A DNA stretch of 64,000 nucleotides, taken from the NCBI GenBank assembly GCA_051362555.1, contig CM120643.1:25424848-25488847 (forward strand). Direction: 5' to 3'. Source of the DNA: Lingula anatina (Eukaryota > Animalia > Brachiopoda). A program made the translations under genes and the position numbers. The notes under the pieces are model-generated. The model saw nothing but the letters and a program-made list of their open reading frames with translations, was not told the origin of the DNA and did not search any database. This document shows, in pieces, positions 3,594 to 64,000 of this stretch (positions within the stretch are counted from its first letter, which is position 1; the number at the start of each line of letters is the position of its first letter).

Positions 3594-3679
<86 letters not shown>

Positions 3680-6600: not shown

Positions 6601-9600
6601 TGGCTGGACACAGGTTTAACAAGGCAGGCCAGAGACGCCACGCCCTCAGAGCCTACAGCCAGGCACTGCAGGTTTATAAGGGGAAAGACTGGATACTCGC
6701 AGAGGTAGGTTTCGCCGTAAATTTTCTGAATTAATTACTAGATATGTAATCTGTGCCAGATATATTTCTGCTGTGACTGAGGTAGCAGTAACACTAGCCA
6801 AAGCTAAAACCGACTTAAATTGGCTAAACAAAATAGGTTGACTTGACTTGTTTTAGTTAAATTGAAGCCATCAAAAGAAAAAAGTTACAAAAAGGAGTGA
6901 TTTGGCTAAACGAAGATATTGCTAGCGCTACTCCAGTGTGTCTGACACAATAATGATGTTGTGCCCTCCTCATTTGATGGAGCACCTAATGATTCTAAGA
7001 AGCTTATTGTTGTAGGAGAGCTGACAAATTTGAGTATTTTAACCCAACTTAATGCTTGATACTTGCAATGGAAAGTAAGACTGTTTTTAGCTTGGGAGAC
7101 CAGACATTTTCATTTTGCATGTCCAACAGATGTACATGACAATTTTCCTCAGTTTGACAGCTGAACTGATGTGATATATTTTAATAATTACATTTTGTTC
7201 GTGAATCATACCAAGTCTTGTTGAAATCATATAACACTATCGCTGATCCAGGGATAAATGAATATCAAAAAGAGACTTAACATCTAGTACACATTAATTT
7301 GTTCTAAATAAGACATAATCTAAACACATAGGTTTCTATGGAGATATAATTTATGAAGATGTTGTTAATACTCTGTTTAGGATCACATCAACTTCACAGT
7401 GGGCAGGCAGTCCTTTAATCTGAAACAGTTAGACAACGCTGCCTCAGCTCTCAGGCATCTGTTATGTAGGTCAAGTCAACAGACACCTGCTCAGCAGGGG
7501 GCATTTCTCAAGGAGTACCTGTTTGTATTCAAGGTAATGTGCTCAAAAAATAGTATTTTTTTTTCCACAAACATCTTTGGGGTCTTGAACATTGATGCTT
7601 TGTTCAAAATAATGCACGGCCTTTTTGTTTGCTGGTTTGTGCTTTATAAGACATACATTTCAAGAAATATGATACTTTTTTGCTTCAAAAAAAAAAAAAA
7701 ACAGCTTTCATTTAATGATTGAAATAATATAAATTGTTTTATCTGTTTATGCTAGTGGTTGTTAGAAGTCAACCTATAATATTCATTCCATCTTTAATAT
7801 TAAATATTAGAAGTACTTCTGTAAATTTCAGTGGATCTCCAATATTTAGTGACAGTTTGTAAAATACCTCTTTACTTATCCATAAAGTAACTAACATGTA
7901 AACTTTAAATATTGTTATATTCCAGCAACACCTTCAGCAAGGCTCCAGTGTTGACGGCCTGCCTCAGTTGCCTCTGCCTTCTGTCAATGGAAACACGGCT
8001 AAAGTACTGCTCTGTCAACCTGGGCAGTGTCCACAAGGTTGGCCTGCTTATATTATAGCCCTAATCACATGTGCTTGATTTCTATAATGACCATGCATTG
8101 TTTGCTGTAAGAATTTGTGTATCCATTCACAGTTGTAAATTTCCTTTGTTGTTTTAAGATATCAGTAGTGTTTGGGATCTTTCTTATTAGGAATGTGGCT
8201 TTGTTAATTTGAGGCACATTGAAATATGCATTACATATTTAATTAGTGACAGTTTTCAAATAGACATGAGTGAAAGATGTTATAAGCAACTTTGCCATCA
8301 GCATCAAGTTTGAGGATTGCATCTCTCTCACAGTAATTCATAATACACTTACTGTAGTTGTTGATGGGAAATGTCTTCTGCATTATACACTGGGCAAATA
8401 CATAAAAATTCAAATAATAATAATAGTAATAATATCAACAACAACAGTGGAAGTCTATGGTTTCTTTAGCTCACTGATTTGACCTTGCTGTTGATAATGG
8501 CAATCACAAACTAAGGAAGGCAGTGGCGGATTGAAGCTGTCTTCTGGGTCTTCCGGAAGACGGTCAAATTTCTAAGTTTACATTGATGAGTACCTAATTT
8601 TTCTGTCGGAAGACAGTCAAAAAATGGAGGATGGATCAAAAAAGATAATGTGGAAGACTGTCCCAAAATATCTCTGGATCCACCCCTTGAAGGATATCAC
8701 TTTTGCTGTTTTCTAGTTTGAAGTTTTTTCATTATTTGATACTAAGTTTCTAAGGCATTTAGTTTTTGGACATTTTGTGAATATATTTGATTCTTCAAAT
8801 TTTATATTCTTTTCCCAGGCAATAAGACCCCTGCCACAGGTGTTGGATTTATAGATGATGGAAGAAGCTTGTCTTGGATGGAACTTGAACAAAAGGTGGC
8901 AGCAACTGTATCCGGCAAACCTGGCAAAGTGCCAGCCAACTTCAAGCCCAGTGTCCAGTGCTTTTCTGACCTCACGAACAACAGTTCACACCCTGTGGCA
9001 GTCATAGGGGGTAAGTAGATTTTTTTTGACTGAAAAACAAAAATATTTTCAAGTTGAAGTATTTTCTTTTCATTTGCTTTATTTTGCATTGCATTTTTAA
9101 TCCATTAGGATTTTTCGTTTCTAGATTAAATCATAATAAATTTGATTGTCACAATCCTTGTTATAAATTGGCATATGGCAGAACTTGATTTATTTTCAGT
9201 GAAACAATATATCAGTATATGTATTCATTACAGAACCCATCTTTGTGGAGATTACATTGGTCAATCCACTGAAGATTTCACTGGTTTTGACTGACATTGT
9301 ATTACTGTGGAGTTTTCTACCTCATGTGGATGAAGAGCAAAATCAAGAAAAGCCCCCACAGTTGATCACCAATGAACATGTAGAAACTGGCAAAGTAAGT
9401 GACCATATTGTAGAATATGCCTCTTTATGGTGATACTGCTTGAAAAGAAATACTGTGTGTAAGATCTCCCAGGAACAGAGACTTTCACATTGACTTCTGT
9501 TATTTGAACTTGATCAAACAATATTTGTAATGAATTTTTGGTGTAATTGCATTCATATATTTATGATAATCGCTTATCTTTTCTGTTGCTGTTCATTTTC

Positions 9601-10101
9601 ATTATCTGTGTTGATACTAGAGCCACAGTTTCTGAGCCATATTTTAGATATTATAGTATATTTTTGTTATTTACTCAAATATAATCCTGCATGACACTTT
9701 CATTTTATTCCCAGAAAACTTTAGCCAATGAATTGGTAGAGAGTGAGGTGATTCCAGAGCTAGTTCTGGAGGCCCTGATGACGGAGCCTCTTCAGTTGTC
9801 TGTGATTCCTAAAAAAGAAGGAGAGCTGCACATAACTGGCATCGCCTATAACCTGGGTACAAGCAGTTCCAGCACAAACACCACCAGCGCCACCAGTGGC
9901 AATGTTATTGCCAATACTGGTGAGCAGAAGCCAAGTTTTATCAGTGGTATCTCTGTGAGGGGGAAGCAAGTGATAGAGGTGCAGGGGCCTCGCCTCAACG
10001 CTTCCAAAGTGGAGAAATGCAGCAAGATTTATGGCCCCGACAGGAGACTGGATGTGCGAATTGTGCCAAAGATGCCTCTGTTAGAGGTAAAGGATTTAAT
10101 C

Positions 10102-10154
<53 letters not shown>

Positions 10155-13100
10155 CAAAGTTGGAGAATTAGCTTAAGTTTAAATGGAATTTTGATCTTAC
10201 AATTAATCAAAGTTATTGAAAAATGAAATCATAATTTTCCGATGTAAACCAATATGCTTTATTGGATTTTCACAATTTTTGCCCTAAATACCTGTTCAAT
10301 ATTTGATACTTGTAATCTGAAAAAATGATATATGTATCAAAAATATTTTATTATATTTTGAGTATTCAAATGATTTCAAGTGATAATTTGGTCTGCAGCC
10401 AAAACTTCTTCCTGTTTTCAATTTATGCAATTTTTAACTGTATCTCTAAGACTTAATATATCTTTTGATTACACCATCATTGAACTGTTATTTTCTCTCA
10501 GGTAAACTTGTACGGTGTTCCCCAGACAATGATGTGTGGAGAGGTCCAACAACTGACAGTGGAGTTCATCAACAGGGGCCCTCTCCCTTTACACAAACTC
10601 TACATGGCCTGCTCCCATCCAAAATTCTGTACTTTTGGGAGCTCTGACACCCTCCCGCAGGCCTCTGCTCTATATCAGTACAACTCCCAGCAGACAGGGT
10701 CAGCAGTGCACAATGAACTTCACGTTGTAAAGGAATTATGGGCGGAGGACGCTCAGCAGGTGCCCTTAAAACGTGACATTTTAGACCAAGGGGGAGTGGT
10801 CAGTGTCCCACTGTGGATTAGGGGACTGGATATCAATGGAGTCCATAATGTGGATTTTCTGTTTTATTATGAACCAGTTGATAGGAAATGTCCATTGATG
10901 AGGTGAGTTCATTTCTACGATGTATATATTTCAAATGGTGTAGAATGTTTTCTTTCTTGTATCAAATCTTAATAAAAATGAGATGCAGCCTTTAAATTAT
11001 GTATATCATACATTTACATTATATTATATACGATGTATGCATTTCTTTTCACTGGTAAATGTAATTTGATCACTCCAGGCATCGTGTTGTCCGCCACACT
11101 GCTGTGATGAGGACCAGCAATGCGCTGAAGCTGACCTCCACTGCCCAGAAGCTGCCTCCCAGTAAGAGGGGACAACTGAACAGTCTGGTGCTGGCACTGG
11201 AGGCAGAGAAGGTGAGTGTGCTGCTGGCACATCTAACACAATGACTCCTTGATCTGAGTTGCATTTGACTGCACAGTACCATACCATACCATACCATACC
11301 ATACCATGTGAAAGTCACAGTACACTATCCCATGAAGTACTGTGCCAAATGATAGCTGCATTACATGTAACCACATTATACTATACTCGGGGGCGGATCC
11401 AGAGATATTTTCTGACAGTCTTCCAAATTATCATTGTTGATCCATCCTTCATTTTTGACCGTTTTCCAACAGAAAAAATTAGATACCCGTCAATGTAAAC
11501 TTGAAAATTTGATGTTTTTCGGGAAGACCCTGAAGACGGCTTCAATCTGCCCCTGATACTGACCTATAGCACAGCATGCCATACAATATGAAAGCTGCAG
11601 AACACCATATAATACCATGTGCTGGCTGCTGTACACTATACCATAACACACAATATCATAAAAAACATGTCATACCATGCACTGTAACATACCATACCAT
11701 ACCATACCATACCATACCTCCGTGTGACAGCTGCTGTCCTCTTCTGTTCCAGGTGTTTGATGCCAGTGTGCTGGAGGTGAGCTTACTGCAGGTGTCCTGT
11801 GCCAGCCCCACCTGGACACTGCATCACCTGAGTACCAGACCACATACAGGTGAGTTCTATAAGATAATATACACCTGGACACTGCATCACCTTAGTACCA
11901 GACCACATACAGGTGAGTTCTATAAGATAATATACACCTGGACACTGCATCACCTTAGTACCAGACCACATACAGGTGAGTTCTATAAGATAATATACAC
12001 CTGGACACTGCATCACCTGAGTACCAGACCACATACAGGTGAGTTCTAGAATTCATTCACACCTGGAATAAAGTGGATTTTATCATTTTGAACACTGTTG
12101 TATCCCAGTGTCAGGTCAAACAAGCATACACATATGCACGCAGGCATGCACGCACGAACGCACGCACGCACGCACAGGGATTAAGCATTTAATTTGTATT
12201 TTAACCTAAAAGCAGTTTTTACCTGTTCATAAATATCAGATACTGAGAATGACACTTGTGAAGTATTTGAGTCACTATCTTCATTTCCACTTGCTTATTA
12301 TTTTTTGACGCCTTTTATGATTTATTGAGAATAATAACTTGTATACATTTCAAATAGTTGTTGCTTTGCTTTAACATTAAATGAATAGAAACTTGGAACA
12401 AAATGCAGGATTTTAAAGTGATCATTCTTGTTAATTACAGATATGAAGTTAAGTGCCACAGAGTCATTATTGATGTCATTCAAGGCCACTAGGTGTCAGG
12501 ACTGTGCTGCAGGTAATTTTTTTGTGATGTTAAAATATACTAGTAGTGCTTGTAACTTTGTTCATTGTTACTCAGATGACATGACTTTTTTTTTCTGTAA
12601 TAGTTAACCAAAGGATTGTTTTGTTTGTTTTTTTACCTTTTACCAAATCTGCTTTTTCAACCAAATTGATTTTTTTCAAATAAATTGTCATTTTTTTTAT
12701 TACAGTGTCATCATCAAAGCTGATTTTCTCAGATGTCACATTTGATCAGCATCAGGTAAGAATTCAAAGTGATTTATGTAACCACAGCAGAAACCTGTTT
12801 AAATATAAGTTTTACATCAGCAATTATCATGATATTATAAAGAAAATAAATAATAAAAACAAAACTGTCATCATCTTTCAGATCAGTAGCACAGGCAGCC
12901 CATGCTGTGATTTCTGCTTTAAGTCTCGCCAGACGTGGAAGTTGGCGTCAAGTAGCAGTGAGGGGGATCCTTCTGTACCCCAGACCACCCCCACCCCACC
13001 GTCACAGGACCAGGGTCTGGAGGACCTGGCACATATAGATCTTAGTTTAATTGTTCTCTGGAAGGTGAGGATCAGGCACATATAGATCTTAGCTTAGTTG

Positions 13101-14643
13101 TTCTCTGGAAGGTAAGAATGTTAATAGCAGCAAGCTAACTACTGAGCATTAAGAAATTGCCTAAGATTTTCGTTAACGTTCACAAACTGGCAATTACTCA
13201 TTTGAAAGTTAGACTGTAGAAAGCAAAAATAATGCTCGATTCTTAACTTGATAATGACACCTGTTATGATTTTAAGGAGTCCTTAAAGTCTTTGAAACTG
13301 AAACTTTGAATTTGGTCATGCTGCTTAGAAAATATTTTGAAAACAATGATTGACCTTCACTTGCTTTGAATGGTTGACCATGAACTGAAAGCAAAACTTT
13401 TAATATAGGCAAGATTTTTCTCTATCTAGATCTTGCCCAGTCCATTTTGTTCATCAATATTATCTTCATAATCAGTTCAAGGTGGTGACAGAGAGTGGTG
13501 CTATAGGGACAATACAGGGACAACATCACCTCCATATAGACAGCCTGGATACCCCTGCCTACTCCCCTGCTGTGAGCAAGGTAGGGACAAATATATACAG
13601 AGATTGAAATATACAGAATTTAAAAAAGATTGTCCAAATTGTAAGTCCAGTGTTAGATTTAATAAAAACTTCCTTTTTGTGAAATATATCAAATATGTCC
13701 TTTTTGTGAACTGGACAAATCCATAGAATTATGCAGAAATTGATAATTTGCCTTAACATATTTTTGATATTGTGAAAAACTGAAATTTATTTGAGTATAA
13801 CTTGTAAGTATCTTGGCAACTGAAGGATATTACAAAGCAGCTATGTTTATTTTAACTGTTATATCTGATTTCGCTGCTGTTTTACCCATAGAAGTGGATG
13901 AGATTTTACTTGTTTTATGTACATTGTTTAGTGTATGGATTCTATAATTTCCCTGGTATTTTAATAGGTTGATAAACTTTGCCATTTAATTCCATGCATA
14001 CAGGTGCCTGTAGAGCATGCCCCAGTGAAAATAATCAAGGACCGCGCCCCTTCATTGCCAAGCCACCCCAATCCTGAACTGGTCTCTCAGCTACTCAAGA
14101 TATGCTTACGGCACAATATGACGGTACTGCATAATTTCCACAAGAACAGGTGAGTTAGCATATGCTGATAAGAAAATATATTACATTTATCCATTGTACT
14201 GTGTAATTTATTTTAGGAAATGAAAAACTAGCTTTTATATGTTTTACTGTGACTTTGGTGCATAATGCCAGATACTTCTTCATTTTCACTAATTTGAATA
14301 TGATGCAATGTGAGGAAAGTTGAGCGCTTTGTCTCAATAATTAGTCAAATGGCTGTCCTTAAATGAAGACCTTTTTTTTTTTTTGCTTAGAAGTATAACG
14401 ACTTACGGTATTTGCTTTAATGTCTTTAAACTTGTGTTAAAATTTCAGATGAAGGGAATACTGCTTTATAACTCATTTAAAAGTCAAATAATTGTGTTGT
14501 CATATATTTGTCAATTCAAATCCCGTATTATTGTTTATTTCAGGCTGTGTTACATGCCAGTTAGTATAGTGCTGCATAACACATCACAGAACACAGTGAA
14601 AGTTGATATGTCTTCCCGTGAACCCAGCTCACACAGGTACAGG

Positions 14644-14682
<39 letters not shown>

Positions 14683-15130
14683 GCGCGTGCGTTCAGTCGT
14701 GCACGTGGACGCACGCACATGCACATTTTACTTAAAATATCATTCACGTGCACATAAGATAATTTGTTTACGTGACAAAACATGCACACCAGATATGTGG
14801 CAATTCTGTGTAATATTACAATAATATTTCACACTCATCTTCAGATCCCATGCTGAATCCACAACCTCTGACATCATCCTGGAGCCAACATCGTCAGGTT
14901 TCAGCTGGTCTGGAAAAATCCACAGCACACTCCAGCTCCAGCCCCTAGAGACACACACACTCCACCTGGTGGCCTGTTTCAACTCCCCTGGAGTGTACAA
15001 TTTGAATAGGCTCCAGGTGGCAGCAGGGGTATTGAGGGAGTCCAGTGACCTTGACATTGATATGGTTGTACAGAAGCATCCAGCGCCATCTGTTGCCATA
15101 GTTAAACAAGAGCCTCTTACGTCAAGTTAG
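717..15130 (+). CDS. TRAPPC8: Trafficking protein particle complex subunit 8 (TRS85 homolog), 5'-partial, 23 coding exons in window
   Basis: Hand-spliced exons: 717-864, 1205-1331, 1603-1946, 2211-2305, 2549-2699, 3051-3154, 4407-4512, 6501-6704, 7381-7533, 7926-8037, 8819-9010, 9234-9394, 9715-10086, 10502-10902, 11079-11211, 11753-11849, 12441-12512, 12706-12755, 12882-13064, 13476-13580, 14004-14149, 14544-14636, 14845-15130 (TAG). Recognisable TRAPPC8 motifs: CHLLQINS, KIFIHEFLVRGLIPWAE, YTPEAPEMQTRRLADLAFMFQLYE, SEDSDLRSALMLEQAGHCF, RKYAFHMILAGHRFNKAGQ, LAEDHINFTVGRQS, QGPRLN..YGPDRRL, FLFYYE. Confidence 0.95.
3597..3678. repeat. (GT)n microsatellite
   Basis: About 40 uninterrupted GT units in a TRAPPC8 intron. 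Confidence 0.95.
4310..4444 (+). repeat. 73-bp-period tandem duplication containing the 3' splice site and first ~38 nt of a TRAPPC8 exon
   Basis: ttaataattatt..attctccagGTCTCCCCAGTTTGC.ACCAGGGCCAC.TTGATGAGCA occurs twice; exon starts at 4334 and 4407. Confidence 0.9.
5196..5216 (+). other. Candidate 21-nt in-frame microexon of TRAPPC8 (SIKVFGE)
   Basis: Pyrimidine tract + aatgcag acceptor, TCGATCAAGGTTTTTGGAGAG, then consensus donor gtaagt; lies in a phase-0 intron. Confidence 0.45.
6095..6103 (+). other. Candidate 9-nt in-frame microexon of TRAPPC8 (SLY)
   Basis: Long U-rich tract ending tttttttcacag, TCTTTATAT, then gtaagt; same phase-0 intron. Confidence 0.4.
8521..8688 (+). mobile_element. 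168-bp MITE, hAT-like termini with 5-bp TSD (copy 1)
   Basis: CAGTGGCGGAT...GGATCCACCCCTT, flanked by GAAGG on both sides; closely similar to 11388-11555 and 37289-37456. Confidence 0.9.
10104..10153. repeat. (TTTA)n microsatellite
   Basis: Direct read; explains the YLFI repeat in the ORF track. Confidence 0.9.
11388..11555 (-). mobile_element. 168-bp MITE, 5-bp TSD (copy 2, inverted), inserted in a degenerate (CCATA)n tract
   Basis: CGGGGGCGGATCCAG...AATCTGCCCCTG, flanked by ATACT on both sides; (CCATA)n runs at ~11276-11306 and ~11688-11717. Confidence 0.9.
11809..12048 (+). repeat. 63-bp minisatellite (~4 copies), each carrying the exon end and a CAG/gtgagt donor
   Basis: Units start at 11809, 11872, 11935, 11998; donor GT at 11850, 11913, 11976, 12039; open frame (GEFYKIIYTWTLHHLSTRPHT)n. 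Confidence 0.95.
13020..13116 (+). repeat. 47-bp tandem duplication of a TRAPPC8 exon end plus donor
   Basis: gaggac/t..ggcacatatagatcttag.tta.ttgttctctggaaggt occurs twice; donors at 13065 (gtgagg) and 13112 (gtaaga). Confidence 0.9.
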
Positions 15131-18025: not shown

Positions 18026-18422
18026 TAGACACTTAACCAGCACAGTAATTCAATTGACTTTAACTTCTGTACTGAAAACACTGCATGATGCGTAAAATTA
18101 GCACTGGGACAGCCTGGACAAAATGGCCGCGTTCCTGCTGCAGATGTCCAGTTCCCATAGCTTTCTCAGTGCGGAGAAGAGATAAGAAAATTAAGGCTCC
18201 AACAGGTTGTTTCTAATTTTGGTTCATTTGTAGCGCTTTATTTTCAATCTCCCACAAGATTGTATTTAGTCTTAGGCTTCTTATGATAATAATACGCACA
18301 CGTAAATTCGTCCACATATTTCTGAATGTTTTTGAAATATTTTCTCCCCAAAATATGTTAGGACATTTCCCGCAGCAAGCCTCTCTACCAACTGTCACAG
18401 TCAAGGACACCCCTCATCAAAC

Positions 18423-20039
18423 ATGGTTGCAAGGATTTTCAACGTTCTGTTGCTAGTAAAAGTGACCGCACTCTATGTCCTCGAATACAATACCAGCTTT
18501 GCCCAAGTCAGCAGCCCGACAAAACTGACAGAACTGAACAGAGGAATTTACGAAATTGGAGAGAAATTGCATAAAGAATGTCCTTCCTTTTTCGACAGAA
18601 AGCTGGCTGAAAATTTGCTTATTCTGGGCAGACGACAGACGACAGAAACTGCGTCCATATTGAAGAAGCGCGACGCCATGTTAGACTTGGAGCTGAGACT
18701 GGCTGAGAAGACTTTAGCTCATTTGACGAAAGAGTATGAGACTTGTGTAAAAGGTACAGTGAGTAGCCATCTATCAAGAGGCATAGGAAACTTGAAAATC
18801 CCAAAATTTACCATTTTTGAAGTTTTTAATTGTTTTAACCATATTCATTGTCTAGGGTCTCTGGGTGAGTGGTGGCATCTTTAGGTGCTTTTTTTATTAT
18901 TGAAATGTCTCGTCATTTATATCTGCCATTCAATTTCTGTTGCAGCCGTTTTCGACTTTATCCACACCTGTTTAGATTCCAATCCTTTCATGCATAATGT
19001 AACATATTTCAACAGACTTACAGCACACCCCTTTCACTCCTCTCAAACATGAGAATTCTCCTCCTCGCGAAGGATTCCCTTCTTCTGTTCGATGTGTACA
19101 TGAGTGTTCAGTTATTTCATAGATTGTTCGTGTAATATTTACAACAGTGACGATGCTTGGGAAGGTGAGGGTTATCCACCGTCTTTGCCAGTTTCCTTAT
19201 TCCTGTATTTATACAAAAAATCATTTAACTACAATTATGTTTTTATTTTCGAAATATCTATATTCTTTTCAGGGCGCGACCCCTGTGCCAGCTCGCCTTG
19301 TTTAAACGGCTCCACTTGCTACGTCTTCAGTGGGAACGTATGGTGTGAATGTGTGTCGGGGTTTGGCGGAAAACACTGTGAAAAAGGTGTGTGCCTTAAA
19401 AAGAGACCTCTTTTAAAATAAGTGCAACTAGCTATCCGATATCGGTGATAAGGATAATACATGTGAAAGCCTTACAAATCAAGAAGAATAAATAGTTTTC
19501 GTGTGAAAAATGAGCCTTTTTTCCTGGCACCTGGTCTGCATTGAAAATTGTTTATGATCTATTTTTTATTTGTGGTTTTTTCGTTTGCTTCACTTCTATC
19601 TCTTGATTATACTTTGCACCCATTATGCATCAATGGGTCAATGATTTTACTAGTACAATAAGAAAAAAACATATTTTGTTTTTTACCATGAGTATATAAT
19701 TGTTCGAGCTTGAAATACGAGCTGATTTTAAATTGCTCTTGAGTGTGGTCGTAATATCACACTGGCGAACAGAAAGCAAAAATAATTTTAATCTTGATTA
19801 TATATAGGCCTGTGTGTATGTGTGTGTGAGTGCGTGTGCCTGTGCGTGTGTGCGCGTGTGCATGCGTGTGAATGTGTGTTTGTGTGTGTGTATGTGAATG
19901 TGTGTGTTTGTGTGTGTGTGTGTGTGTGTACTGGCTATAATGCTTTTGTCTTTTGTCATCAGAAATATAGACAATATGAGAAATTGAGAGGTAATTGTTT
20001 CGTTATTATCTCTTTTCAGATCTAGATAACGCAAAGTAA
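18423..20039 (+). CDS. Small putative secreted protein (~154-168 aa): signal peptide, helical region with GRR/KKR sites, single EGF-like domain
   Basis: Exons 18423-18753, optional 19123-19164, 19273-19386, 20020-20039 (DLDNAK*), all phase-1 junctions. EGF: [32 protein letters not shown]. Hydrophobic N-terminus [16 protein letters not shown]. The last exon is the least certain. Confidence 0.65.
19810..19929. repeat. Imperfect (GT)n microsatellite
   Basis: Direct read. Confidence 0.85.
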
Positions 20040-24137: not shown

Positions 24138-25367
24138 AAACACACGCACAAGCACACACGCTCATTAAGCAGCTATCGTTCTTCCTTAAATGCAGACTAC
24201 TAATGTAAAAAATACACCTACAAATGTCCTGGACCAAATTTAAAACCAAACCACCATCACACAAAGTGACTTGCGTATTCTCGCCACCATATTCAGTGAC
24301 ATATTAATTTAGCATCTAAGAAACGACATTAATATCACCCCAATCCGCACTGTCACCCACCGCACATTTAGGCCTATATATATGTCACCACCCACAGTGT
24401 CCTAGACAATAGGCCTATATACAGCCAATGTTTCACCCATCTCTCCCCTCTCCGCAACGTCATAAACCGTTACAAGGTGCATCTTCCCTATCAGTACTTT
24501 GAAAGGGGGTGCAATAGCAAGGTATTGGAACCCCCTCCCCCTTCCTCCCAACACATAGGAAGCCGGGTTCACAGTTTTTTTAAACTTTTTGCCACACATA
24601 TACTGGTATAAGGATCGACATTTCTTAAAGATCTTATTTTAGGTGAATAAAGTTAAGGACACCCCGCTGTTGCTAGATCCGAATAGAACTTTTTAAGTTA
24701 TTTATATAAGAAATAAAGATATCTTGAGACAGAAAAGACAGATAGGTTATATATTATATATACTTACTAGTAAATCTTGGATCAAATTAAAACCATATTT
24801 GTGCTTATCTGATGTGGTATATGAGCCTATTAATTACACCATTAGTGTAAAGAAGGCTAACTCCCATTTAATGTTACTCTATCTAAGGAATAAAACTGAG
24901 CTGTTTCGGTGTTTTTGCCTTTTCGCCATTTCCTTAGTCTATTAAAAATCAAATAAATGAGGCTTTCAGTCTTCCCGTAAAAGCTATAAATTATTTTTTA
25001 TTTTCAATAAATATCATGTATATCACAACTCTCCAAAACAAAATATTGTCAGTATATAAGTCAGGATAATGTGTAAAAATATGTCTTCACAATTAATTAG
25101 GTCTAGCACATGTATATTCTTCATGGAAAATGTCTTCATTTACTATTTTCGTAGATTTCATGTGTAAATATTGCATTGAGGATAGAAATGTTTCTGTCCT
25201 CACAATTAGTATTAGGACTAGTATTTGGATAATTTCCATAGAAAATATCTGGCTTCATTTACTGGTTTATTAGAGCTCATTAAATATTGTTTTGTGATCC
25301 CCTGTCAGTGAAAAGCTGCAAAGCCAATGTTTCCCGTCAACTTCTACCCTACATGGAATGAGTTTTA

Positions 25368-25489
25368 TATTGTATTGTATTGTATTGTATTGCATTGTAT
25401 TGTATTGCATTGCATTATATTATATTGCATTGCATTGCATTGCATTGCATTGCATTGCACTGTATTGTATTGTATTGTATTGTATTGTA
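25368..25489. repeat. (ATTGT/ATTGC)n pentanucleotide repeat directly upstream of the acceptor at 25500
   Basis: Direct read; explains the CIVLY/CIALH ORF text. Confidence 0.9.
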
Positions 25490-25513
25490 ATTTCTTCCAG
25501 ACATGTAGCAATC

Positions 25514-28500
25514 ATGGGGTCTACTCTGCCGTGGGTGCCATGGGCACTGGTCATCGCAGGTCTGGTTTGGTTCGCGCTTGCGCAGGCGCAGCAGGACCCA
25601 CCAAACTCCTGCATCCCCCGGGAGAGATACCTCAGAATTCCTGGTGATGCTTACATAACGGCACTCCTAGACATACACCACCCAGACCCGGGGAGGCCGT
25701 GGAGGTGTGGCACGGGGGTGAACAAACGGGCCGTCTTAGAACTGGAGACAATGCTATGGGCAATAGATAGGATTAACACGGCTGGGTATTTTGGAGCCGG
25801 GAAACTAGGTGTGTTTTTAATCTCCGACCACCGGGCGTGCTAGTAGTCTGTTACAAAAACGTTGAAAAGTGGGATTTTGTACAGTATTTTAGTAGGGGTG
25901 TAATATCAGAGGGAATAGTATGTATTGTACACTCACATCACTTTCTTTCAGAGGACCTTCTAGCTGTGACTAAAATCTCAAAATTTGTTGAAGAATTTAT
26001 AAGAGCTTGAACAACTAAGAGCGAGTACACTTTAACAGTACCTAAGGGGGCGATTTCCCCTTTATTTTGTACATTCTAAACTTACTGACTGCTACAATAT
26101 TGCTATTAATTGATGACTGCCCAACACACATATGTCAATATTTTGTTTTGGAGAGTTGTGATATACATGATATTTATTGAAAATAAAAAATGTATTGGAA
26201 ACAACAAACACGCAATGTGTAGAATTTCTAACTAATTGACAACGAACTCATTCCACCGTTTTACAGTCTAAATTAAAACAGGTTTCAAACGGCGGGCATT
26301 ATTCTTCAAACATATCAAGGCTGTTAAGTTGCAAGTTTGAGACGTGTACTGTCTCACATCCCTCACACACAGTAACTGACGTGAAACAACACCTTAGTCT
26401 AACTGGCGAGATAAAAATACTCTAAAAATTACCCAACATGTCTCACTTACAGGTTTGGAGGTATACGATACATGTGGATTGAAGAATGATGCCGTACAGT
26501 TTGCCAGTGACAAGCTCTCATTTCTGTACGACTGCACGACCTCCTGTACTGCGAACGGCACTTTTCTGGGCCTGATAGGACCATCCAACTGTGATGCAGC
26601 CGACGCCGTGGCCACATTAATGAAGGGAAGAAATGTCACACAGGTGTTGACGTCAGAGTGCTCAAAACAATACGTCACAAGTGACGTCACAGCATACCCT
26701 TCTCTTTTCCGGACATTTCAACGACCTAAAACAAGGAACGAAGTGAGTTCGCTCATAAGTGAATGATAATATGCATGTACTCTTAATTGTGTGTATAGAT
26801 GCGTGTGCTAGTTTTTTAAAGTGATAATTAAATTTAGAATGAACTCTCACAAGTGAAAGACCAGTGTTTGGTTATAATCATGATATAGATCATTCTAAAG
26901 GTTTACCTATAATGATAGATAAATAAATAAACTCATATATCCTAAGAAATAGAAACGTTTTTCTTTCAGGCCCTGTTAGCATTGGTGAAGGACCTTCAGT
27001 GGTCCTTAGTAGGTGCAGTTTACACCAAAAGCCAGGAGTCCGTAGAACAATTCCAGGAATTCAAAGAAATGGCCAATAAAAATGGCATATGCATTGGTCA
27101 CTCGGAACCCGTCTTTCCTTCCATGAACATGAATAGTTTGGCACAGTGGGCGGCTGAAGAATATTTCGACTTGGGTTCAGCGACGGGCGCCAACATGGGA
27201 GTCGTGTACTTTGGAGACAATGAAATGTTAGTGGATTTATTTACTGAAATACAAACCAGAAACTTAAACAGAGATTTGAAGAATTTACACTGGATTCTGT
27301 CCACGGATCAGTTTTCTTCAAAAGAACTGTCAGATATAGAGAGTTATGGAGAAGGAGCTATTGTTGTATCAACCAAGTCTTTTTCTTTACAGCAAGTGAC
27401 TGAATTTATTACCAAACGCATCAACGAAGGAGCTGTTGCAACGCCAGAAAATCCCTGGCTTAAAAATCTCACTACTTCTGATGTGGTAATTAGCGAAACG
27501 ATGGTGCCATCGTTAGACGCTATATATTTGTATGCTAAAACATTAAAGGAGACGGGGGCTAGTCTCTGCTCTTCAAATAGTGGGAACATATGCCCAGAAG
27601 TTAACTACAATAGCATACGACAGCGCTTTGAAAACATACGTGTATTATATACCGACCTAGGTGACATGGCACCAAATGATTTTGTGTCCACTGGTAGGAA
27701 TATATCGTTCCAGTATGACCACCATTTACGAAGTTTAACAAACGATTCTCAACAACAGCTGCAACAGAATTATTTTCTTCTTGCGCAAAACTCTCCCCAG
27801 AATCCAAAACTTATTGGGAATTTCACCGAAGAGGGAGGATTCTACCTTGATAATTCAGAACTTACAATCAGAACTTCATCCTGTGCAAGTATATGCACCA
27901 ATTGTATTCAACAGGTGCGGCGAGATTACGACTTTTTCGTCAAAGAAGGGGATGTTTATATTTTAGCCTTGATGAAGCTACACAACAGAGCAAAAGACCC
28001 TTCGGACAAATATGGGTGCGGAGAGTACGATACCGTCTCCAACCCTTACCCTCAAGTGGAAGCTCTGCTCTTCGCTTTGGAAGAAATGTCCAACAAGACG
28101 GGGATCAACTTCGGGGCGATCGTGTATGACGCATGTGACAGTTCTGTCAGACTGACGAATATGCTTGGAAACTTTTTCAACAATGAGACGGGAGACCCAC
28201 ATTTTGCGTTGACCGTCAAGGGGAAGCCGCTGGACATCAACAAAGTCGTTGGGTGTATTGGCGCCTTCACGAGCACGGACACACTGACCGCTGCAGCGTT
28301 CTTGACTCATATGAAGCGTATTTTGGTGAGTTGAGGCGCATCATTAAAACCTTTATTTTGTTTCTAGATTAATAAAGTCGCCTGTGCCAAATACTGGTAC
28401 TGTTAACGTTGATGTAACGAGGAATTACTTTCAACCGATGTGATATGTTGGCAAAATATGCAATGAGTGTAAAACTGCTTCTACATAAAACAAGTGGGCA

Positions 28501-29955
28501 GAATTTTGCATTAAATGCTTATGAAAATCAAACTTGCTTTAAAGTCACTAGAACTTCAGAAAAGATCTCATTAATGCACTTTCACTATTGGTTCACTGAA
28601 AATGAAGATAACTTGTTGACTTTTTGCAGTCAATTGGTTTACGGCTGCAGTGACTGGTTTACATAATCAAGTATTGTAAACCACACAAAATTCAACAATT
28701 TATGTGACTTCATATTGATTTTTATGTGCCACAGGTCAGCTACTCCGCATCCAGTACCCTCTTAGACGACAGAAAGCGATTCCCATACTTCCTACGAACT
28801 CTACCATCTGACAGCAAGCAAGCTAAAGCCATTCTAGATATCATCAAACATTTAAAATCTAATTACGTGCATCTCGTGCATGTAGACAACGACTACGGAC
28901 GCACGGGGGCCTCTGCGTTCAAAGACCTTGCCCAAGAGAATGGTATTTGTATAACTCAGTCTACTCCCAAAATCCTTGACTTAGACGGGGGAAATGCCAT
29001 TGGGATCGCTGGGCAATTATTAGACTCAAACGATGCCAATATTGTTGTATTCTTTGGTGAAGATGATCACGCCATTAATTTTCTGTCCGGACTTAAGCAA
29101 GTCACAAGGGACATTATGAGACAATTTGTGTTCATTTTCTCCGAAGCCATCGCAGACGGGGAAGCCGAAATTCGGCGACAATTCCCTGATCTTGTATTAG
29201 GCTCCATATCGCTAAACGTGGACAATCAGCACAGGTGGCACACGTCATTTTACAACTACCTTTCCAAAAAGACTCCCGACTTCTCAGCTAACCCAATGTG
29301 GTTTAACGAATTCTGGGAACATAATTTTCAATGTAGTCTTGACAGCAGTTTCTCTAAAGACCGTAGTCTTTGTATGGGCAATGAACGCATTGCTAAAGCA
29401 TCGGTGCTGACAGGAAATCCATGGGTTCCGCCAATTATAACCGCGGCGCTGGCGCTGACGCAGGGACTGTCCGAGCTTCAGTGCCTTACCCCCCTCTCAA
29501 AGTGCGCCGTAGAGGACATAGTATCCAGCGTCGCGGGCACGACGCTGCAGTCTGAACAGGCCACGTCCTTCAGGCCGTTTGACGACAATGGGAATGGACT
29601 CATCGGATACAAAATATTTAGCTTTCAGAAAAACTCAAGTGGAACCATATACAAAGAGGTTAGTGAATTATTTGTGAATGTTACTTTTTTGTTGTACAGA
29701 TAAACCTAATTGTGATATTTTTGGATATTGATTTTCATTATCTACATTTTTTTTATTTATTTAAACAATCAAGAGGCGAATTCCAGACGTACGCAATTAC
29801 ACTGGTCCTTTGACAATGGGAAAACAATCACGTTTTTTATCATCTGACAAATAAATGTATTTCGCAACCTTCGATGTTGAATATTGGGATATGTCCATTG
29901 GAGTGGATTGTTGTATGTAATGTTAGCTCTTGCAGTGAGTACGTGAACATGCAAG

Positions 29956-30001
<46 letters not shown>

Positions 30002-32037
30002 CGCGCGCGTGCGTGTGTGTTAGTGTGTTTGTCAAGGTATTCATAAGAAGATCCTCATAATAAATTCACAGGTGGTTATTGTATTTACATTATCCGAAAT
30101 TTTGAACCAATGAAAATTGTATTTACATTAACCGAACTTATGAACCAATGAAAATATGTTCGTGAGAGAACAGTTTCATTAGCTCTGTATGTATCAATTT
30201 AAATTATTGTTTTTCTTTTTATCAAGAGCTTATAAAATATGTGGGTATTACCTCCAATATTTCTGTGACTGTCAGTCACCATCATCAGGGAGTAAATGAC
30301 TAGGGTCATTTCACCTGGAATGAAAATCCAGGTCAATTGCCCCTAATCACTGGCCAGAAATATTGGAGGTAATACCCACATATTTTATAAGCTCTTGGTA
30401 AAAAGAAAAACAATAATTTAAAAAATATGTTCGGTTGTAAAATAATGAATGTTCATTACAGGTTGGTTCTATATCCCCCAATGGCTCACTAGTTGGTCTC
30501 GAGGACAACGTATTTTACGCCAAAAATGGTGACGTCATCAGAGACTTCCAATCCACTTGTCAGGGAGCGGTGAAAGGCTGTGACTTTTGCGTAGTGAATG
30601 ATGGAGAGAAAGAAGAAGGACAAGAGGGTCTCGTTACGGCTCTGGTACTGGTGTCTGTGGTGCTTGCAGTAGGCCTCGTGGCTGTGGCTGTGTTTTTGTA
30701 TACTCGGTACAAAAACGGTAAGTAGGCCTACCTCTAAAGTACAGGGGTGATGCATTGTTTTTCACGTATAAGTGATGACAATAAGAATTACTAATTTAAA
30801 AGTCAGTAACACACTAATAAAATTAATGTAAGTACTTTGAGAAAATTTAAGAAAAATTGATAAAACATTTGAAATCTTTGTTTCAAATATGAGATGATTA
30901 TATATATGTAGTCACTTTTAAAATATCATAATAAAGATTTTATTTGGCGAAAAAATTGGTTTCACCAGCTGTTATCTTATTTCTTTTTCAGACAACTGCC
31001 AAGTGATAGCAAGGAGTTGTCTGGTCATCCATCGCCCAACATCCTCATCCTTCAAACAAAATGGTGTCCTTCACAACGAGACTCAATCGCAAACTCCCAT
31101 CCAAACGACAACACAAGATGACGCCGATATAGACTCCATCTACACGACGCCCGTGTCCGATAATTTCAATCGACTGGGTTTATTTTTTGGCCTTACTTCC
31201 AGCAGCGTGGACGGGAGCACAAGGAGTGCTGATTCTGACGTGGGTGCTGCCAATTACGGCCCTCCCCTACCAAAACGCAATAGCGAAAATGGCGGGCGGG
31301 GCCGAGCAAGCACTATGCCTTCAAGGTCGATCTCCTTGCCGCCAAAAGCGATGCGATCGTCTGCCGATGATTCCGAAGTTGAATCAGAACCTGCGTATTT
31401 ACAGATGAACAGATCGGAACCGGGATTTCCCATCAAACGCCAGCGTCCGTCAGCAAGAGATCCCCTGTCAGGTCTTGCCACTTTACCTAGAAATAACAGA
31501 AACAGACATCTTCAAAGAAATACTCCAGACCGGGATAGTTTAGAGATGTATCGCCATTCTGAAAGTGTCCATTATCACTCCTCTCCCTTGATTGACCAAT
31601 CACCGCCGGTCTCTCAACAGAAAAGTCGTCCATCAGACTCGGAACCGGTTCAGTACAGTACCTTGTCCATTCCCAGCACAAACGCGTACACTTCACCCCC
31701 GCGCGCCAGCGCACCAAGACCTACAGCTCTCTACTACCCGTCAAGTGATCGTCATCACACGTCCGGGGAGTCTGGCTCAAGCGGGCGTCTGTCCCCCATT
31801 CTTCCTAAACCCCAAGGGAACGCTGCCGTACCGTCACACTATGACCCGTACCCGTATTCGTATGTTAACAATGCCTATAGCCCAGAGCCCGCGCCTCAGG
31901 GGGACGACGGAAGTAAAAGCATTAGTTCCGTCATGCAGTATGAGAATCCGACTCCGAATTTACGTCGTCACGCGGCCGGCATGATACCAAACTGGTTGGA
32001 GTCGCAAACTGATGGACTCAGGTCCAAATATGTGTGA
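25514..32037 (+). CDS. Single-pass membrane protein with two tandem mGluR/class C GPCR-like Venus flytrap (ANF_receptor-type) domains and a Tyr-rich cytoplasmic tail, ~1388 aa
   Basis: Exons 25514-25808, 26453-26742, 26970-28325, 28735-29658, 30462-30717, 30992-32037 = 4167 nt, phases consistent. Signal peptide; VFT1 motifs PGDAYITALLDIH, LETMLWAIDRIN, LGLEVYDTC, LKDLQWSLVG-like, KNGICIG, ENPWL; VFT2 motifs EGDVYILALMKLH, VEALLFALEEM, FGAIVYDAC, VVGCIGAFTS, VSYSASSTLLDDRKRFPYFLRTLPSDSKQAKAI, DYGRTG, NPMWFNEFWEHNFQC, FDDNGNG; one TM helix; C-terminus SKYV. Confidence 0.85.
29959..30020. repeat. (GT)n microsatellite
   Basis: Direct read. Confidence 0.9.
30198..30423. mobile_element. Foldback/MITE-like element with ~68-bp terminal inverted repeats
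   Basis: tttaaattattgtttttcttttt.tcaagagcttataaaatatgtgggtattacctccaatatttctg is mirrored at the right end with 1 mismatch. Confidence 0.8.
30462..30717 (+). CDS. Transmembrane exon of the tandem-VFT receptor (absent from the ORF track)
   Basis: VGSISPNGSLVGLEDNVFYAKNGDVIRDFQSTCQGAVKGCDFCVVNDGEKEEGQEG-LVTALVLVSVVLAVGLVAVAVFLY-TRYKN; acceptor ttacag, donor gtaagt. Confidence 0.85.
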
Positions 32038-33517
32038 TATGCATACATATACCAGTACAAGGCAGCGTAAGCGTTTAGCTGCGAGCTCAGCTATCGACTT
32101 CTCAAGTCTGGTAGTCCAGTATGTTCCTAGCGTTTTCAGAGACGTAAGGAGGATATTAAACGATTTTCTAAGTTAGCGAAGGAGTGGCAGTGACCCAGTG
32201 GCGAGAAACTTGCGAAGCTGGCAGCGAAGCTGGTATCTCATATTGTGAACTGGACACGTGGTAATATCTTTATCATTGTGTACTTATCATGTGAAAATAT
32301 GTACATCTTCATGTATCATCTAAAACAGAAATATTTATCATGGACGATTTAAGTTTGTAATAAGCACACTTAATGTTCTTATTTAATGGTACGAAACTCT
32401 TTAAAAAAAGTATATGCTATTCTGTTAATGTATTCCACCAAACGTGTGAATCACTGTTTCTTTTATTTGCTCAATGATTAGCTCATCTGCATGTTCTTAA
32501 ATCCTTCTTGGATACAGTTTTTTTTAAATGTAAGCAACTATAGAATGGGTGTTAGTGCAGCATACAGAAATTCGAGCGTGTATGTTCACCCTACGTGCAG
32601 CTGTCAACTGGGACTGTCACTGCTATTACCTCTGCCATTTATTAAGTGATCGATATCATTGTTATTTGTGGTTTTTTTTTTTTTTTTGGTCTTTAGTAAT
32701 TTTCAAATTCATTTGTTTTTAACGCAAAGTCTCTTGAAGAACGTAAGACACGAACATGTCGAAATTGATGAAGTGTGAAAAGATACAGCATAATATTGTT
32801 TATTATTTTGTTCTTATACGCTGTGTTTATTTTTGTTGAAAATCACGTAATGATTTTTTTCCATTTTCCATTTATTTAGGTTAATTTCACCTCACTTCAC
32901 AATGCTTGCTGAGGCATTTGGCAAGAAATCTTGTGCACGTGCGTCCACTGTGTGGGCGTGCGCATGCGTGCACGTAGAACACGCGTGTTTGTATATGGTT
33001 ACCTATATATATGTATATATCTCATAATTTATATTATATACAACGGGAATATCATGATATGATGTGATGTATAGTGTAAAATATAGACAATATTTTGATG
33101 AATTATGAGCGTGTCATTTTTCATTTGACCCAAAAATGCCTGGTAACGCGTTTGAAATGATCTTATGAGTAATTTATGTTGAAGCTGGAGGTTTAGCATT
33201 TCATTGCGTTTTACAAGCGTGATATACTGGACTTATTTTTAAATAATGTAGAAAGACGGCCTCCTGCGAGGATCAAATATGATCGACTCACTTGACAGCT
33301 TGCCGCACAACCCTCTGATAGACAATGAAAAGATTCCTCGTGAGGAATACGCGACAAGCATTCAAGTGGGTCGGTCGTGTTTGATCCGTGGATCTGTTAC
33401 TCCGCTTTTTTAAATGTGACCTAAGCGTAACGGAGTTTTGACTATTGCTGACAAAAATCAACGGCACTGTCTGACTTGAAGAAATATTACTTTTTAGTGA
33501 TTTAACTATTATGTACG

Positions 33518-46300: not shown

Positions 46301-46409
46301 TGAAGTGAGAGAACTGACTGGTACCTGACCACAAAACCATGATCCTTATGACTTCCAATTACCCTCTACCTAAACAACATTGAAGCTTATGGCTTAGGAG
46401 TCCAGAACC

Positions 46410-49400
46410 ATGCTGCTTTTTCCTCTGTTCACCTTGCTTTGGTTTTGCCTTGCTGCGGGCCATGCTGAAGTGACAACGGCTGGAAGCACCACCATCAAAG
46501 ACAGCAGTACAGTACCACCCAGCAATAACAGTGACAGTATCAGTAACAATAACAAAGAGACCATTGAGGATAATGACACCATACAAAGAGGAACTACCAA
46601 TGGTACCTTGAGTACCGTTAGCACAAAGCGCCCTAGTACAACCACAAGCCGACCCCAACCATCGCCCAGTGACAGCTCTGGCGTTGATGTGATTGATCTC
46701 GGCCTTCTGCATGGTACCAATGATCCTCATTTTATTGATATAGGTGACAGTAACGACAGCAGCCATCATGGGAACCATTCTGTGCACTCCACGGATCACC
46801 CCACACATTCCCACGAGGGAATTCACGTCGCCAGTTGGAACTTTGACTATGTGAAAGCGCCTTTGGTCATAACTCTTTTCATTACTGTCGCAGGTTTTTG
46901 TAAATTAGGTGAGTGAACTAAAATCAGGCTAGATTTATGATTTATTTAGTGCAGCTTAAAGAGCTTGTTGTACTGTAAGAGGGTCGATATAAAGTCTTAA
47001 GTCGCATTTTACAGTGAAGGCAGGTCAATCCTTCTATTTTGGCTGTCTAATTGAGTTAAGCTTACCAAGGGCAGTAAATATTAAAAGAATTCCATACCAC
47101 CTAAATCACTTTTCATTAGGCAATGATAACATTTATTTTAGCAATATGTGCATGGTCACTTGTCGTATTTAGTTTGAAAAAAGGTCGACCTCTTTCTCTT
47201 TGTCAAAAATAGCAACTCCTCTTTTCTCCCACCTATGTCTCCACCCCCCTCCCCCTCCATTCACTGGGTGTGGTGTGTGACCAGTCATAGGCAGCAATAA
47301 CTTGGCCTGCAGAGAAAGGTCACTGCAAGAAAAGTCAACCTTTCTTCAATGTAAACAGGGTTCAGATGAAGACACCAAATGACCTAAACATTTTTTACTG
47401 TACTGTAATATGTAATCCATTATGTCAAGCATTCTGGTCATTTTAAGATATCAGCAAGAGTATTTCGCTTTTTTACATGTATAGAATTTTAGTAATTATA
47501 TCAATCATTGTCATTGAAACATATATATGTATCTTGAAGTTGGCAACAGAAGATATCCAAGACGGCATAAAATTGTGCCCATTTAGTAACAATTTTATGG
47601 CATGTCATTTTGGCTGTGAATAACAGATAAGTAATACCTACATTCATTTGAAACCTGTATACAGTTACTCGTCAATTGTCATAGTCAGCAGTGATTTCCT
47701 TACCAAAAGGTTTCTCATGTAACAGTTATTTTTTTAAAAGAAATGTCATCGTTTCACCAGAACATTCATAATGATGCCCTTTATAAATGAAAATACATCG
47801 GTACAATGTGTGTGTGGAATTTTTTTAATGTGATTTCCTGTCTTTGGTTCTCAAGTTTATTATCTGATCAGACTCTTATTTAACTCCTTTTTTTATGTGA
47901 AATGTTATTTGCGGGGGTATGCCTCTTTTCTCTTCTTGGAGATTGTTTTTCTGCATCAGTGGGCTTTTTATAATCACGCTGTTTTGTATTGGTAACATAT
48001 GTGTCTGCTTGAACTGTGCTCAGGTTTAAACGTACTTTAAGCACCTTTGGCAGGGCATTGAATGTGCATGCAAAGGGCTCGCTGTAGTAATTTCACAGAT
48101 TTAAACAGAATCTGTAAGTTGTAGTAATAATTAAGATTTTCTGAATTGATTGAAAAGTTCTGAAAGTTGAATTGTGGCCATGTCAGGAAACATGTTTTTA
48201 GGAATAGTTGAAATCATAATTCTAGAACAAAAATATTGTCAAAACAAAAGTCAGCTGTGATTGATCACCACATAATGAGACTTGTTTGATGTATCACAAA
48301 ATGACCCGATATTTCTTATCATCCCTCCTCAGACTTATATACCCTAGATTACTGAGACATCTGAGAGTAAAAAGGTCACCTTTTCAACAAGTTGAAACAA
48401 GACCAGATCTATTCACTAATTCGGCTCAAATGGGACATCGATCCTTCCATTGTAAAACCCAGACTGTTTCGAGGCAGAGCATTCCCAAGTTGCCAATCCA
48501 TGACATTTGTGCTGCACAAGTGAATACACAGCATCCAAATGTCTTCTGATATAATCAGCAGTATTGTGTGGTCCAAGAATGCAATCAAACCATGAGGCTG
48601 AGGATGAATTAACTGTATTGGCCATTTTGGTTATTGAAGACTTCATTGATTGCATGACCTGATGGTTACCTTTAGGACACTTAAATGTCCATTTGGTTAA
48701 TTGGATTTGACCACCTTATTGGCCACATAACCTGTTGGTTTGGCCAATTTTACTTAAATCGTAGGAGTTTGTATAATTCTGTTGTCCAGTTTGCGTCTAA
48801 TGGTAATTACTATATATCTGACTGCTGTAATACAAATGTTGATGGACAACTTAGTGTGAAGTTGTATTTCAAAATATTTTGATGGATACTTTTAAAAACT
48901 AATGCTCATGGACTCAAAACTCTTAAAGAGAGCTTAATTAATTCCAACCTTTACCCATACCCTAAATCATTCTAATATAATATGCTGTTGATACTGTATG
49001 TGATATTTTATGGTTGGAACTGGAGAAATTCTGTCTCTGTGGTGTTGTCTGTCTGATGACACGTGTTGTGCTGCAGGGCGTAATAAAGATAGGGGTTAAG
49101 CCAAAATTTTAAAATGATTCCAAATTCATTTTTTACTGAGACAGGCTGTTCGGGCTCCATATACCAGTAAAATGATAATGAAAATCTGAAAAAAAGATAT
49201 CCCATATTGACATGGAAAGTCCATACAACATCTAAGCAGCTGCCTGACTAATGCCCTGGACACAGAGGATATTGAGCCAATTGGTATCAGTTAATTTTCT
49301 TTTGCTAATACAGGAATATTTATTTGGCAAAATTTTACCAATTTTTTCTTTATTATAAAGACGTTAAAAGTCACCTGAAGCATTATCCTTCTGCAAAAAA

Positions 49401-52400: not shown

Positions 52401-52674
52401 CAAGTGCCTATGCATTGAAAATGTACTAGATCATGCTGTTTTTTACACTAGGCTTTTTCCATTGAAAACATTTAATTGCATTTTAATAATAGAGCACTTG
52501 CTCTATTTCTATTACCCCAGAGTAACTCTTGACTGGGTTAATAAAATGCTCAGGGGAATGCCTGCTGCATACTTACATTATTACAGTGTAGTGCAATTAC
52601 ATTACAGCACGGAAAAGGGAGGGATGTGCATGTTACATGTACGTTGCAGATGCATTGCTGTTATACTCTCTCTT

Positions 52675-52708
<34 letters not shown>

Positions 52709-63766: not shown

Positions 63767-64000
63767 GTAAGATGGTATTTGATATATGTTATTGCAGTGA
63801 AATCCAACTCTTTTTTTTAGCAACATGTAAGCACCAGTTTACATTTAGCATTTGCTTTAATCTTGCTGATACTGTACCTGCATTAAATCTTATGTTGGAC
63901 TACTGTGCCACTATGCGAATTGTACATTGGCATAGTAGAAATATCATTATCTTGTTGTTGTTGTTGTTTTTATTAATTTTTCTGATTATTTTAGTTATGG

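Follow-up and report, generated by a model that had tools for sequence, protein, structure and literature searches.

The window, a stretch of 64,000 nucleotides of the brachiopod Lingula anatina (contig CM120643.1 of assembly GCA_051362555.1, positions 25,424,848 to 25,488,847), carries on its forward strand a gene for a receptor-like protein with two serial Venus flytrap (VFT) domains and one transmembrane helix. Its six exons, all with GT-AG ends, splice in phase, and splicing and translation of the window yields a protein of 1388 amino acids (aa) followed by a stop codon. The product consists, in order, of a signal peptide, VFT1, a three-cysteine linker, VFT2, a second three-cysteine linker, one helix and a disordered tail. 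A preliminary description made from the letters of the window had proposed a phase-consistent six-exon frame of about 1388 aa with this layout and a low-complexity tail; the frame is upheld by GT-AG splicing, RNA junctions and a RefSeq counterpart, and the layout by Pfam, hydropathy and AlphaFold2. The features of the gene, in window coordinates, are as follows.

25514-25808, + strand: exon 1, with start codon, signal peptide (aa ~1-25) and the start of VFT1 (translation, RNA depth and junction)
25628-27914, + strand: VFT1 (aa 39-510, spanning introns), with pocket residues degenerate in the Lingula copy: C145, C168, P190, E218, T307 (profile, pocket mapping)
26453-26742, + strand: exon 2, VFT1 (aa 99-195; weak ANF_receptor match, E 3.7e-4; RNA)
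26970-28325, + strand: exon 3, remainder of VFT1, first cysteine linker and beginning of VFT2 (aa 196-647; translation, Pfam, RNA)
27882-27905, + strand: three-cysteine linker 1 (C500, C504, C507; kept in 43, 43 and 42 of 43 aligned proteins)
27933-30590, + strand: VFT2 (aa 517-998, spanning introns), with S630, S653, D673, Y701 and E784 kept, and Q557 and P876/W877 at the mGlu1 Arg and Lys (1ewk alignment)
28735-29658, + strand: exon 4, the part of VFT2 (aa 648-955) that carries S653, D673, Y701 and E784 of the pocket (translation, Pfam, 1ewk alignment, RNA)
30462-30717, + strand: exon 5, end of VFT2, second cysteine linker and single transmembrane helix (aa 956-1040; translation, RNA, AlphaFold2)
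30558-30590, + strand: three-cysteine linker 2 (C988, C995, C998; kept in 43, 42 and 42 of 43 aligned proteins)
30642-30698, + strand: core of the transmembrane helix (aa 1016-1034; hydropathy 3.14; AlphaFold2 gives one helix for the near-identical protein P0001)
30992-32037, + strand: coding part of exon 6, a disordered tail of 348 aa that is rich in Ser and Pro and includes 16 tyrosines, stop codon 32035-32037 (translation, RNA, AlphaFold2)
31396-31407, + strand: Y1176-L-Q-M, a relaxed match to the tail motif Y-[LI]-x-P/hydrophobic (motif scan)
32038-33228, + strand: likely 3' untranslated region (read depth runs to about 33.2 kb; end not exactly mapped)

Transcript evidence comes from four RNA runs (X1, X4, X7 and X8), picked by species label and mapped to 24500-33500 only. 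All five exon junctions are present in reads of X7 and X8, which cover every exon, and X1 supports the last two; the gene is barely covered by reads of X4, in which no junctions were seen. The two junctions singled out earlier for confirmation were both found in X1, X7 and X8, with 2, 6 and 12 reads, respectively, for 29658>30462, and 2, 8 and 20 (30 in total) for 30717>30992, the junction between exon 5, with the helix, and exon 6, with the tail. Mapped reads are short and mostly 1-10% divergent from the window, and 15 of 20 joints were displayed, such that rare isoforms are possible. Classing of 36 of about 500 read differences gave 15 synonymous and 18 non-synonymous codons and no stop, a tally rather than a selection test. 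The RefSeq counterpart, XP_013384017.1 (P0002 in our set; LOC106154264, “uncharacterized”), is likewise 1388 aa long and differs from the window by 23 substitutions.

Hydropathy identifies only two hydrophobic windows in the protein, at aa 5-23 and 1016-1034, and the count of one transmembrane segment, made by hydropathy and AlphaFold2, agrees with what the preliminary description expected of DeepTMHMM. Pfam searches of P0002 (E<=0.1) returned two ANF_receptor stretches and Peripla_BP_6 and no further domain: as also anticipated, there was no 7tm_3, kinase or cyclase, nor was there NCD3G. No match to a seven-transmembrane (7TM) profile of 28 relatives was found among 2909 six-frame segments of the 64-kb window (best E 0.27), and tblastn for a 7TM region in the window likewise gave none. 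The two flytraps are 25% identical across 270 residues, and the closest solved structures by sequence are those of the metabotropic glutamate receptors (mGluRs) mGlu5, 4, 7, 8 and 1, followed by the calcium-sensing receptor (CaSR). In the AlphaFold2 model of P0001 (953 aa, without most of VFT1), VFT2 is folded and followed by one long helix, and the tail has a pLDDT <50 nearly throughout. That of an abalone relative, P0004, comprises two flytraps and one helix (pLDDT 87.7, pTM 0.77), has mGlu2/3/5 as its top Foldseek matches, and contains a flexible stalk (pLDDT about 50) before the helix. A complex prediction for two VFT2 copies scored 0.00 with the alignment unused, and weighs neither way.

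Several minor observations concern the locus itself. The 23 differences between window and P0002 are distributed as 18 in aa 131-490 (VFT1; window 26549-27854), one in VFT2 and four in the tail, and the excess in VFT1 may reflect relaxed constraint or a mosaic haplotype. P0001 (LOC106154266) is a second, partial RefSeq model, 98% identical, on a contig of equal size to that of P0002; the window carries one copy, and P0001 may be a tandem duplicate or a haplotype artefact. Intron 4 contains, at 30198-30422, an element resembling a miniature inverted-repeat transposable element, with 68-nt inverted arms that are 99% complementary and 89 nt apart, where high read depth derives from other copies.

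Predicted ligand pockets and the single-pass family

Pocket positions of the two-flytrap family were mapped by alignment to 1ewk, with mGlu1 as reference. The residues of mGlu1 that hold the alpha-amino acid are S165, T188, D208, Y236 and D318. They agree with the mGlu3 residues given in PMC3206071. VFT2 of the Lingula protein keeps all five positions for the alpha-amino and alpha-carboxyl groups (S630, S653, D673, Y701, E784), and the residues for the glutamate side chain are not kept: Q557 stands in the column of the Arg, and P876/W877 lie close to that of the Lys, where the alignment is uncertain by one position. VFT1 of the Lingula copy retains none of the five and sits on a long branch (1.47). 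The suggestion that this protein senses amino acids may hold for VFT2, the one flytrap of the Lingula copy with an amino-acid pocket. Across the family, the complete pocket is kept in 27 of 43 first and 31 of 42 second flytraps, compared with just 15 of 69 domains of G-protein-coupled receptors (GPCRs) with four or five flytraps, and Arg is not among the commonest letters in the column of mGlu1 R78. To judge from these residues, the likely ligands of the family are amino acids, glutamate excepted, which would bind usually at two sites and in the Lingula copy at one. Of 43 proteins, 42 keep the lobe-2 cysteine C236 and all 43 keep C719, in an alignment in which P0153 replaces P0020.

Relatives were collected by phmmer with P0004 as query, which gave 2846 matches; the best 150 were taken into a total set of 155 proteins, which is skewed towards the abalone query, so that family counts are a lower bound. 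By profile and hydropathy, at least 43 of the 155 share the two-flytrap, one-helix layout, as the preliminary description had proposed looking for among relatives; a further 19 are partial one-helix proteins, 21 carry two to five flytraps and a 7TM domain, 7 are canonical one-flytrap GPCRs, and 65 are fragments or lack a helix. A Pfam scan of all 43 single-pass members found 7tm_3, NCD3G, kinase and cyclase domains in none. Eleven of the 43 were assigned to taxa (three from Lingula, two from Batillaria, and one each from Pecten, Haliotis, Patella, Pinctada, Aplysia and Potamilus), and the taxonomic span given here, namely Lingula, bivalves and gastropods, rests on these. In two relatives the full frame, of 1131 and 1137 aa, fits within a single contig (3.7 and 3.6 kb, respectively).

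In databases, family members are listed as “uncharacterized” or auto-named mGluR. The first ESM Atlas cluster, for example, has 105 members with a 1283-aa representative, ANF_receptor at 100% and 7tm_3 not listed, and is auto-named mGluR 6/7/8; word-index homolog searches returned only 1, 4 and 3 proteins. No description of the layout in animals was found in the main texts of the literature searched, although genome papers or tables of domains may mention it. The Lingula gene is a member of a widespread and apparently undescribed family of molluscs and brachiopods. As a side observation, the cluster of P0066 includes a 2385-aa model that joins the Lingula paralog LOC106158345 to rabankyrin-5, which is likely an annotation fusion.

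Relation to other flytrap receptors

The 21 multi-flytrap proteins (P0015, P0021, P0038, P0042, P0045, P0049, P0076, P0077, P0125, P0134 and 11 more) all carry 7tm_3, and none carries NCD3G in Pfam. Nine of ten that were looked up could be assigned (Tubulanus, Physella, Argopecten, Saccoglossus, Anneissia, Acanthaster and three from Branchiostoma), so that GPCRs with two to five serial flytraps, most of their pockets degenerate, span a nemertean, molluscs, a hemichordate, echinoderms and amphioxus. In a FastTree phylogeny of 170 flytrap domains, VFT1 and VFT2 of the single-pass proteins form two separate clades, each inside the domains of multi-flytrap GPCRs. Further trees were built from hand-picked subsets of 76 and 63 rows (LG+G4 without mixture), with six canonical class C domains as outgroup; the comparison with mGluR and CaSR, GABA-B and Venus kinase receptors that had been suggested was thus made with respect to canonical class C receptors, with GABA-B, Venus kinase receptors, NPR and SmGBP left out. 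Here, single-pass VFT1 clusters with domain 1 of multi-flytrap GPCRs (100/97), whereas single-pass VFT2, itself monophyletic at 94/86, clusters with the inner domains (2-4) of five-flytrap GPCRs (97/94).

Duplication of the flytrap within the single-pass lineage, with VFT1 and VFT2 as one clade, was rejected (p-AU 0.003), and grouping of VFT2 with the last flytrap of five-flytrap GPCRs was not (p-AU 0.37), both tested groups having been chosen after the trees were seen. On these phylogenies, the tandem layout was likely inherited from a multi-flytrap class C GPCR and the 7TM domain then lost, a loss that we infer because the domain is still present in the flanking relatives, canonical as well as multi-flytrap. 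The 7TM profile gave weak scores on the 43 single helices (best E 0.004), and the single helix may be the old first transmembrane segment or a new one; both options remain because the grouping of VFT2 with the last flytrap was not rejected.

Compared with the class C GPCRs mGluR, CaSR and T1R (PDB 1ewk, 6n4y, 5cnj, 5k5s), the protein is alike in flytrap sequence (phmmer E 2e-37) and fold (Foldseek E 9e-37), in the alpha-amino-acid pocket of VFT2 and in the lobe-2 cysteine, yet has two flytraps in series, a three-cysteine linker replacing NCD3G, and one helix rather than seven; from mGluRs proper it differs additionally in that VFT2 is without the Arg and Lys for the glutamate side chain. With the multi-flytrap GPCRs (e.g. 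the uncharacterized Saccoglossus LOC100374272, Tubulanus LOC141898800 and Physella LOC131957655) it has in common tandem flytraps, short cysteine linkers and the absence of NCD3G, whereas these proteins keep 7tm_3, have two to five flytraps with mostly degenerate pockets, and lack the tyrosine motif discussed below in the 7TM tails tested (0/28). NPR-C and the receptor guanylyl cyclases resemble it in their ANF_receptor domain and single pass, with one peptide-binding flytrap. NPR-C is also without an enzyme domain; the Lingula protein differs from it in its two flytraps, its 348-aa tail and its best PDB matches, which are mGluRs and CaSR.

Two serial flytraps before one helix are found in the sensor kinases BvgS and EvgS, which end in a histidine kinase. 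The same order, with a cyclase end, is described for trypanosome receptor adenylate cyclases in PMC6027212. The Lingula protein is like both in this layout and has neither cyclase nor histidine kinase. SmGBP, a truncated flatworm mGluR, has lost the 7TM domain, binds ligand and is a dimer of the body surface; as characterised in PMC3206071, it has one flytrap in 488 aa with the glutamate Arg kept, and no cysteine-rich domain (CRD), C-terminal helix or tail. An mGluR-type flytrap without 7TM is common to both, and the Lingula protein differs by its second flytrap, helix and tail. Venus kinase receptors, which are activated by L-amino acids and have an aromatic residue in place of the glutamate Lys of mGlu1 according to PMC3703292, share an invertebrate flytrap and single helix with the Lingula protein, yet combine one flytrap with a kinase where the latter has two and none. 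The mismatch with mGluR/CaSR, Venus kinase receptors, receptor cyclases and NPR-C noted in the preliminary description is therefore confirmed by domain content: the protein belongs to none of the named families of flytrap receptors, although SmGBP, NPR-C and Venus kinase receptors are partial precedents.

Proposed signalling and alternative functions

The motif Y-[LI]-x-P occurs in 27 of the 43 family tails (shuffled mean 2.6, maximum 8 in 1000), in both subclades (11/19 and 16/24) and in 9 of 18 held-out partial proteins (shuffled 0.45), and is absent from all 28 tails of 7TM relatives; the relaxed form Y-[LI]-x-[PVILAM] occurs in 38 of 43 (8.0). Motifs of the forms pY-x-x-P and pY-[LI]-x-hydrophobic are docking sites for SH2 domains. 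Tails of the Lingula subclade have a median length of 350 aa and many tyrosines, and 17 of 19 end in V, I or L (2.9); those of many relatives are shorter than 70 aa, with little besides one tyrosine motif. An Atlas search with the Lingula tail gave no usable match.

Our preferred reading, in which confidence and doubt are about equal, is that of a non-catalytic single-pass receptor likely binding a non-glutamate L-amino acid in VFT2, which would signal via adaptor-docking tail tyrosines in place of a G protein. Beyond the anatomy of the sequence, each step of this scheme is inferred. An L-amino acid would close VFT2, and closure would be relayed by the lobe-2 cysteines (C236, C719) and the three-cysteine linkers, much as a disulfide from lobe 2 to the CRD passes closure on in mGluRs. 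The linker would then shift the helices of a dimer, assumed by analogy with class C receptors, allowing a cytoplasmic tyrosine kinase to phosphorylate the tail, on which SH2 or PDZ adaptors would dock. VFT1 of the Lingula copy would be a spacer or dimer contact rather than a sensor. A wider reading, which we offer as a tentative one and hold with less confidence, is that in this lophotrochozoan family a multi-flytrap GPCR swapped its 7TM domain for a helix and a phosphotyrosine/PDZ tail, and that molluscs and brachiopods thereby gained an enlarged set of amino-acid chemoreceptors, with two pockets in each chain and no use of G protein, channel or enzyme of their own.

Several observations weigh against the preferred reading. 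Monophyly of single-pass VFT1 reaches just 76/90, and a single helix behind a flexible stalk is a weak lever. Family tails vary from 17 to 755 aa and can be aligned in only four pairs. The motif Y-[LI]-x-P was picked after viewing the tails and was compared with 7TM relatives but not with other, unrelated single-pass proteins of molluscs, and may therefore be generic; ITIM, YxN, YxxM, NPxY and PPxY are not enriched in the 43 family tails. C-terminal V/I/L is also enriched in 7TM relatives (13/28) and is not enriched in subclade B (6/24). In the Lingula tail itself the strict motif is missing; YLQM and four copies of YxxP are present instead, and the C-terminal SKYV does not conform to a class I PDZ motif. 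A conserved tyrosine motif in a disordered tail would be expected of the functional class of non-catalytic tyrosine-phosphorylated receptors; the earlier proposal of an adaptor-docking receptor gains from motif enrichment across family tails, while the Lingula copy offers only the relaxed form.

The principal alternative, to which we give a low but appreciable probability, is an accessory subunit that pairs with multi-flytrap 7TM receptors and supplies or tunes a ligand site while the partner couples to G protein, or else a decoy. GABA-B and T1R heterodimers illustrate such a division of labour between subunits. The closest kin of the family are indeed multi-flytrap GPCRs of the same phyla (scallop, snail), whose pockets are mostly degenerate (15 of 69 domains complete) where single-pass pockets are mostly intact, and class C flytraps usually dimerise, as stated in PMC6027212. 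However, the family keeps a tail motif that 7TM relatives lack (0/28), which suggests an output of its own; single-pass proteins also outnumber multi-flytrap 7TM proteins in the set (43 versus 21), though the query was itself single-pass.

Clearance or uptake in the manner of NPR-C, with ligand bound and internalised and the tail tyrosine used in trafficking and not as a signal, seems unlikely. The absence of a catalytic domain and the short tails of many relatives (<70 aa, with little beyond one tyrosine motif) would suit such a role, whereas the proline at position +3 of the motif would not. YxxPhi sorting signals have a bulky hydrophobic residue there. Moreover, NPxY is not enriched, and the Lingula subclade has long (median 350 aa), tyrosine-rich tails. 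Slightly less likely again is an adhesion or synapse-organising protein, with flytraps that bind proteins and a PDZ-type end anchored to scaffolds: this would fit a long ectodomain on one helix, tails that end in V, I or L in 17 of 19 subclade members, and a Lingula VFT1 that has lost its pocket and retained its cysteines, yet most family domains still have the small-molecule pocket, for which the binding of proteins alone gives no need. Finally, it is very improbable that the gene is that of a class C GPCR, truncated or wrongly modelled, with 7TM exons elsewhere: short reads were mapped on 24500-33500 only, with five joints and 57 loose ends not displayed, but the helix-to-tail junction occurs in 30 reads from three runs, no 7TM segment lies within the window, 43 proteins have the identical layout, and the whole 1131- and 1137-aa frames of two relatives sit on the 3.7 and 3.6 kb contigs.

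Animal flytrap domains are known to report through a 7TM domain, channel, kinase or cyclase. If the receptor reading holds, a conserved family combining an amino-acid pocket with a tyrosine-motif tail would represent a further type of flytrap output, and a GPCR lineage turned into a single-pass receptor. Amino acids in the water are sensed by molluscs, and the family provides candidates for this role that have been overlooked and can readily be tested. Surveys of receptors require a 7TM domain or drop sequences without one, as outlined in PMC6307864 and PMC11682238, and with such a filter GPCR surveys would miss the family.

Neighbouring genes

Three other genes or sets of exons lie on the forward strand of the window. 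Exons at 46398-64000 resemble what we take to be a Na+/H+ exchanger, with no such Pfam match on the two frames tested. Those at 18336-19421 belong to a gene whose product probably has a signal peptide, together with a helical stretch and an EGF domain, and positions 1-15130 hold a multi-exon TRAPPC8-like gene (Pfam TRAPPC-Trs85).

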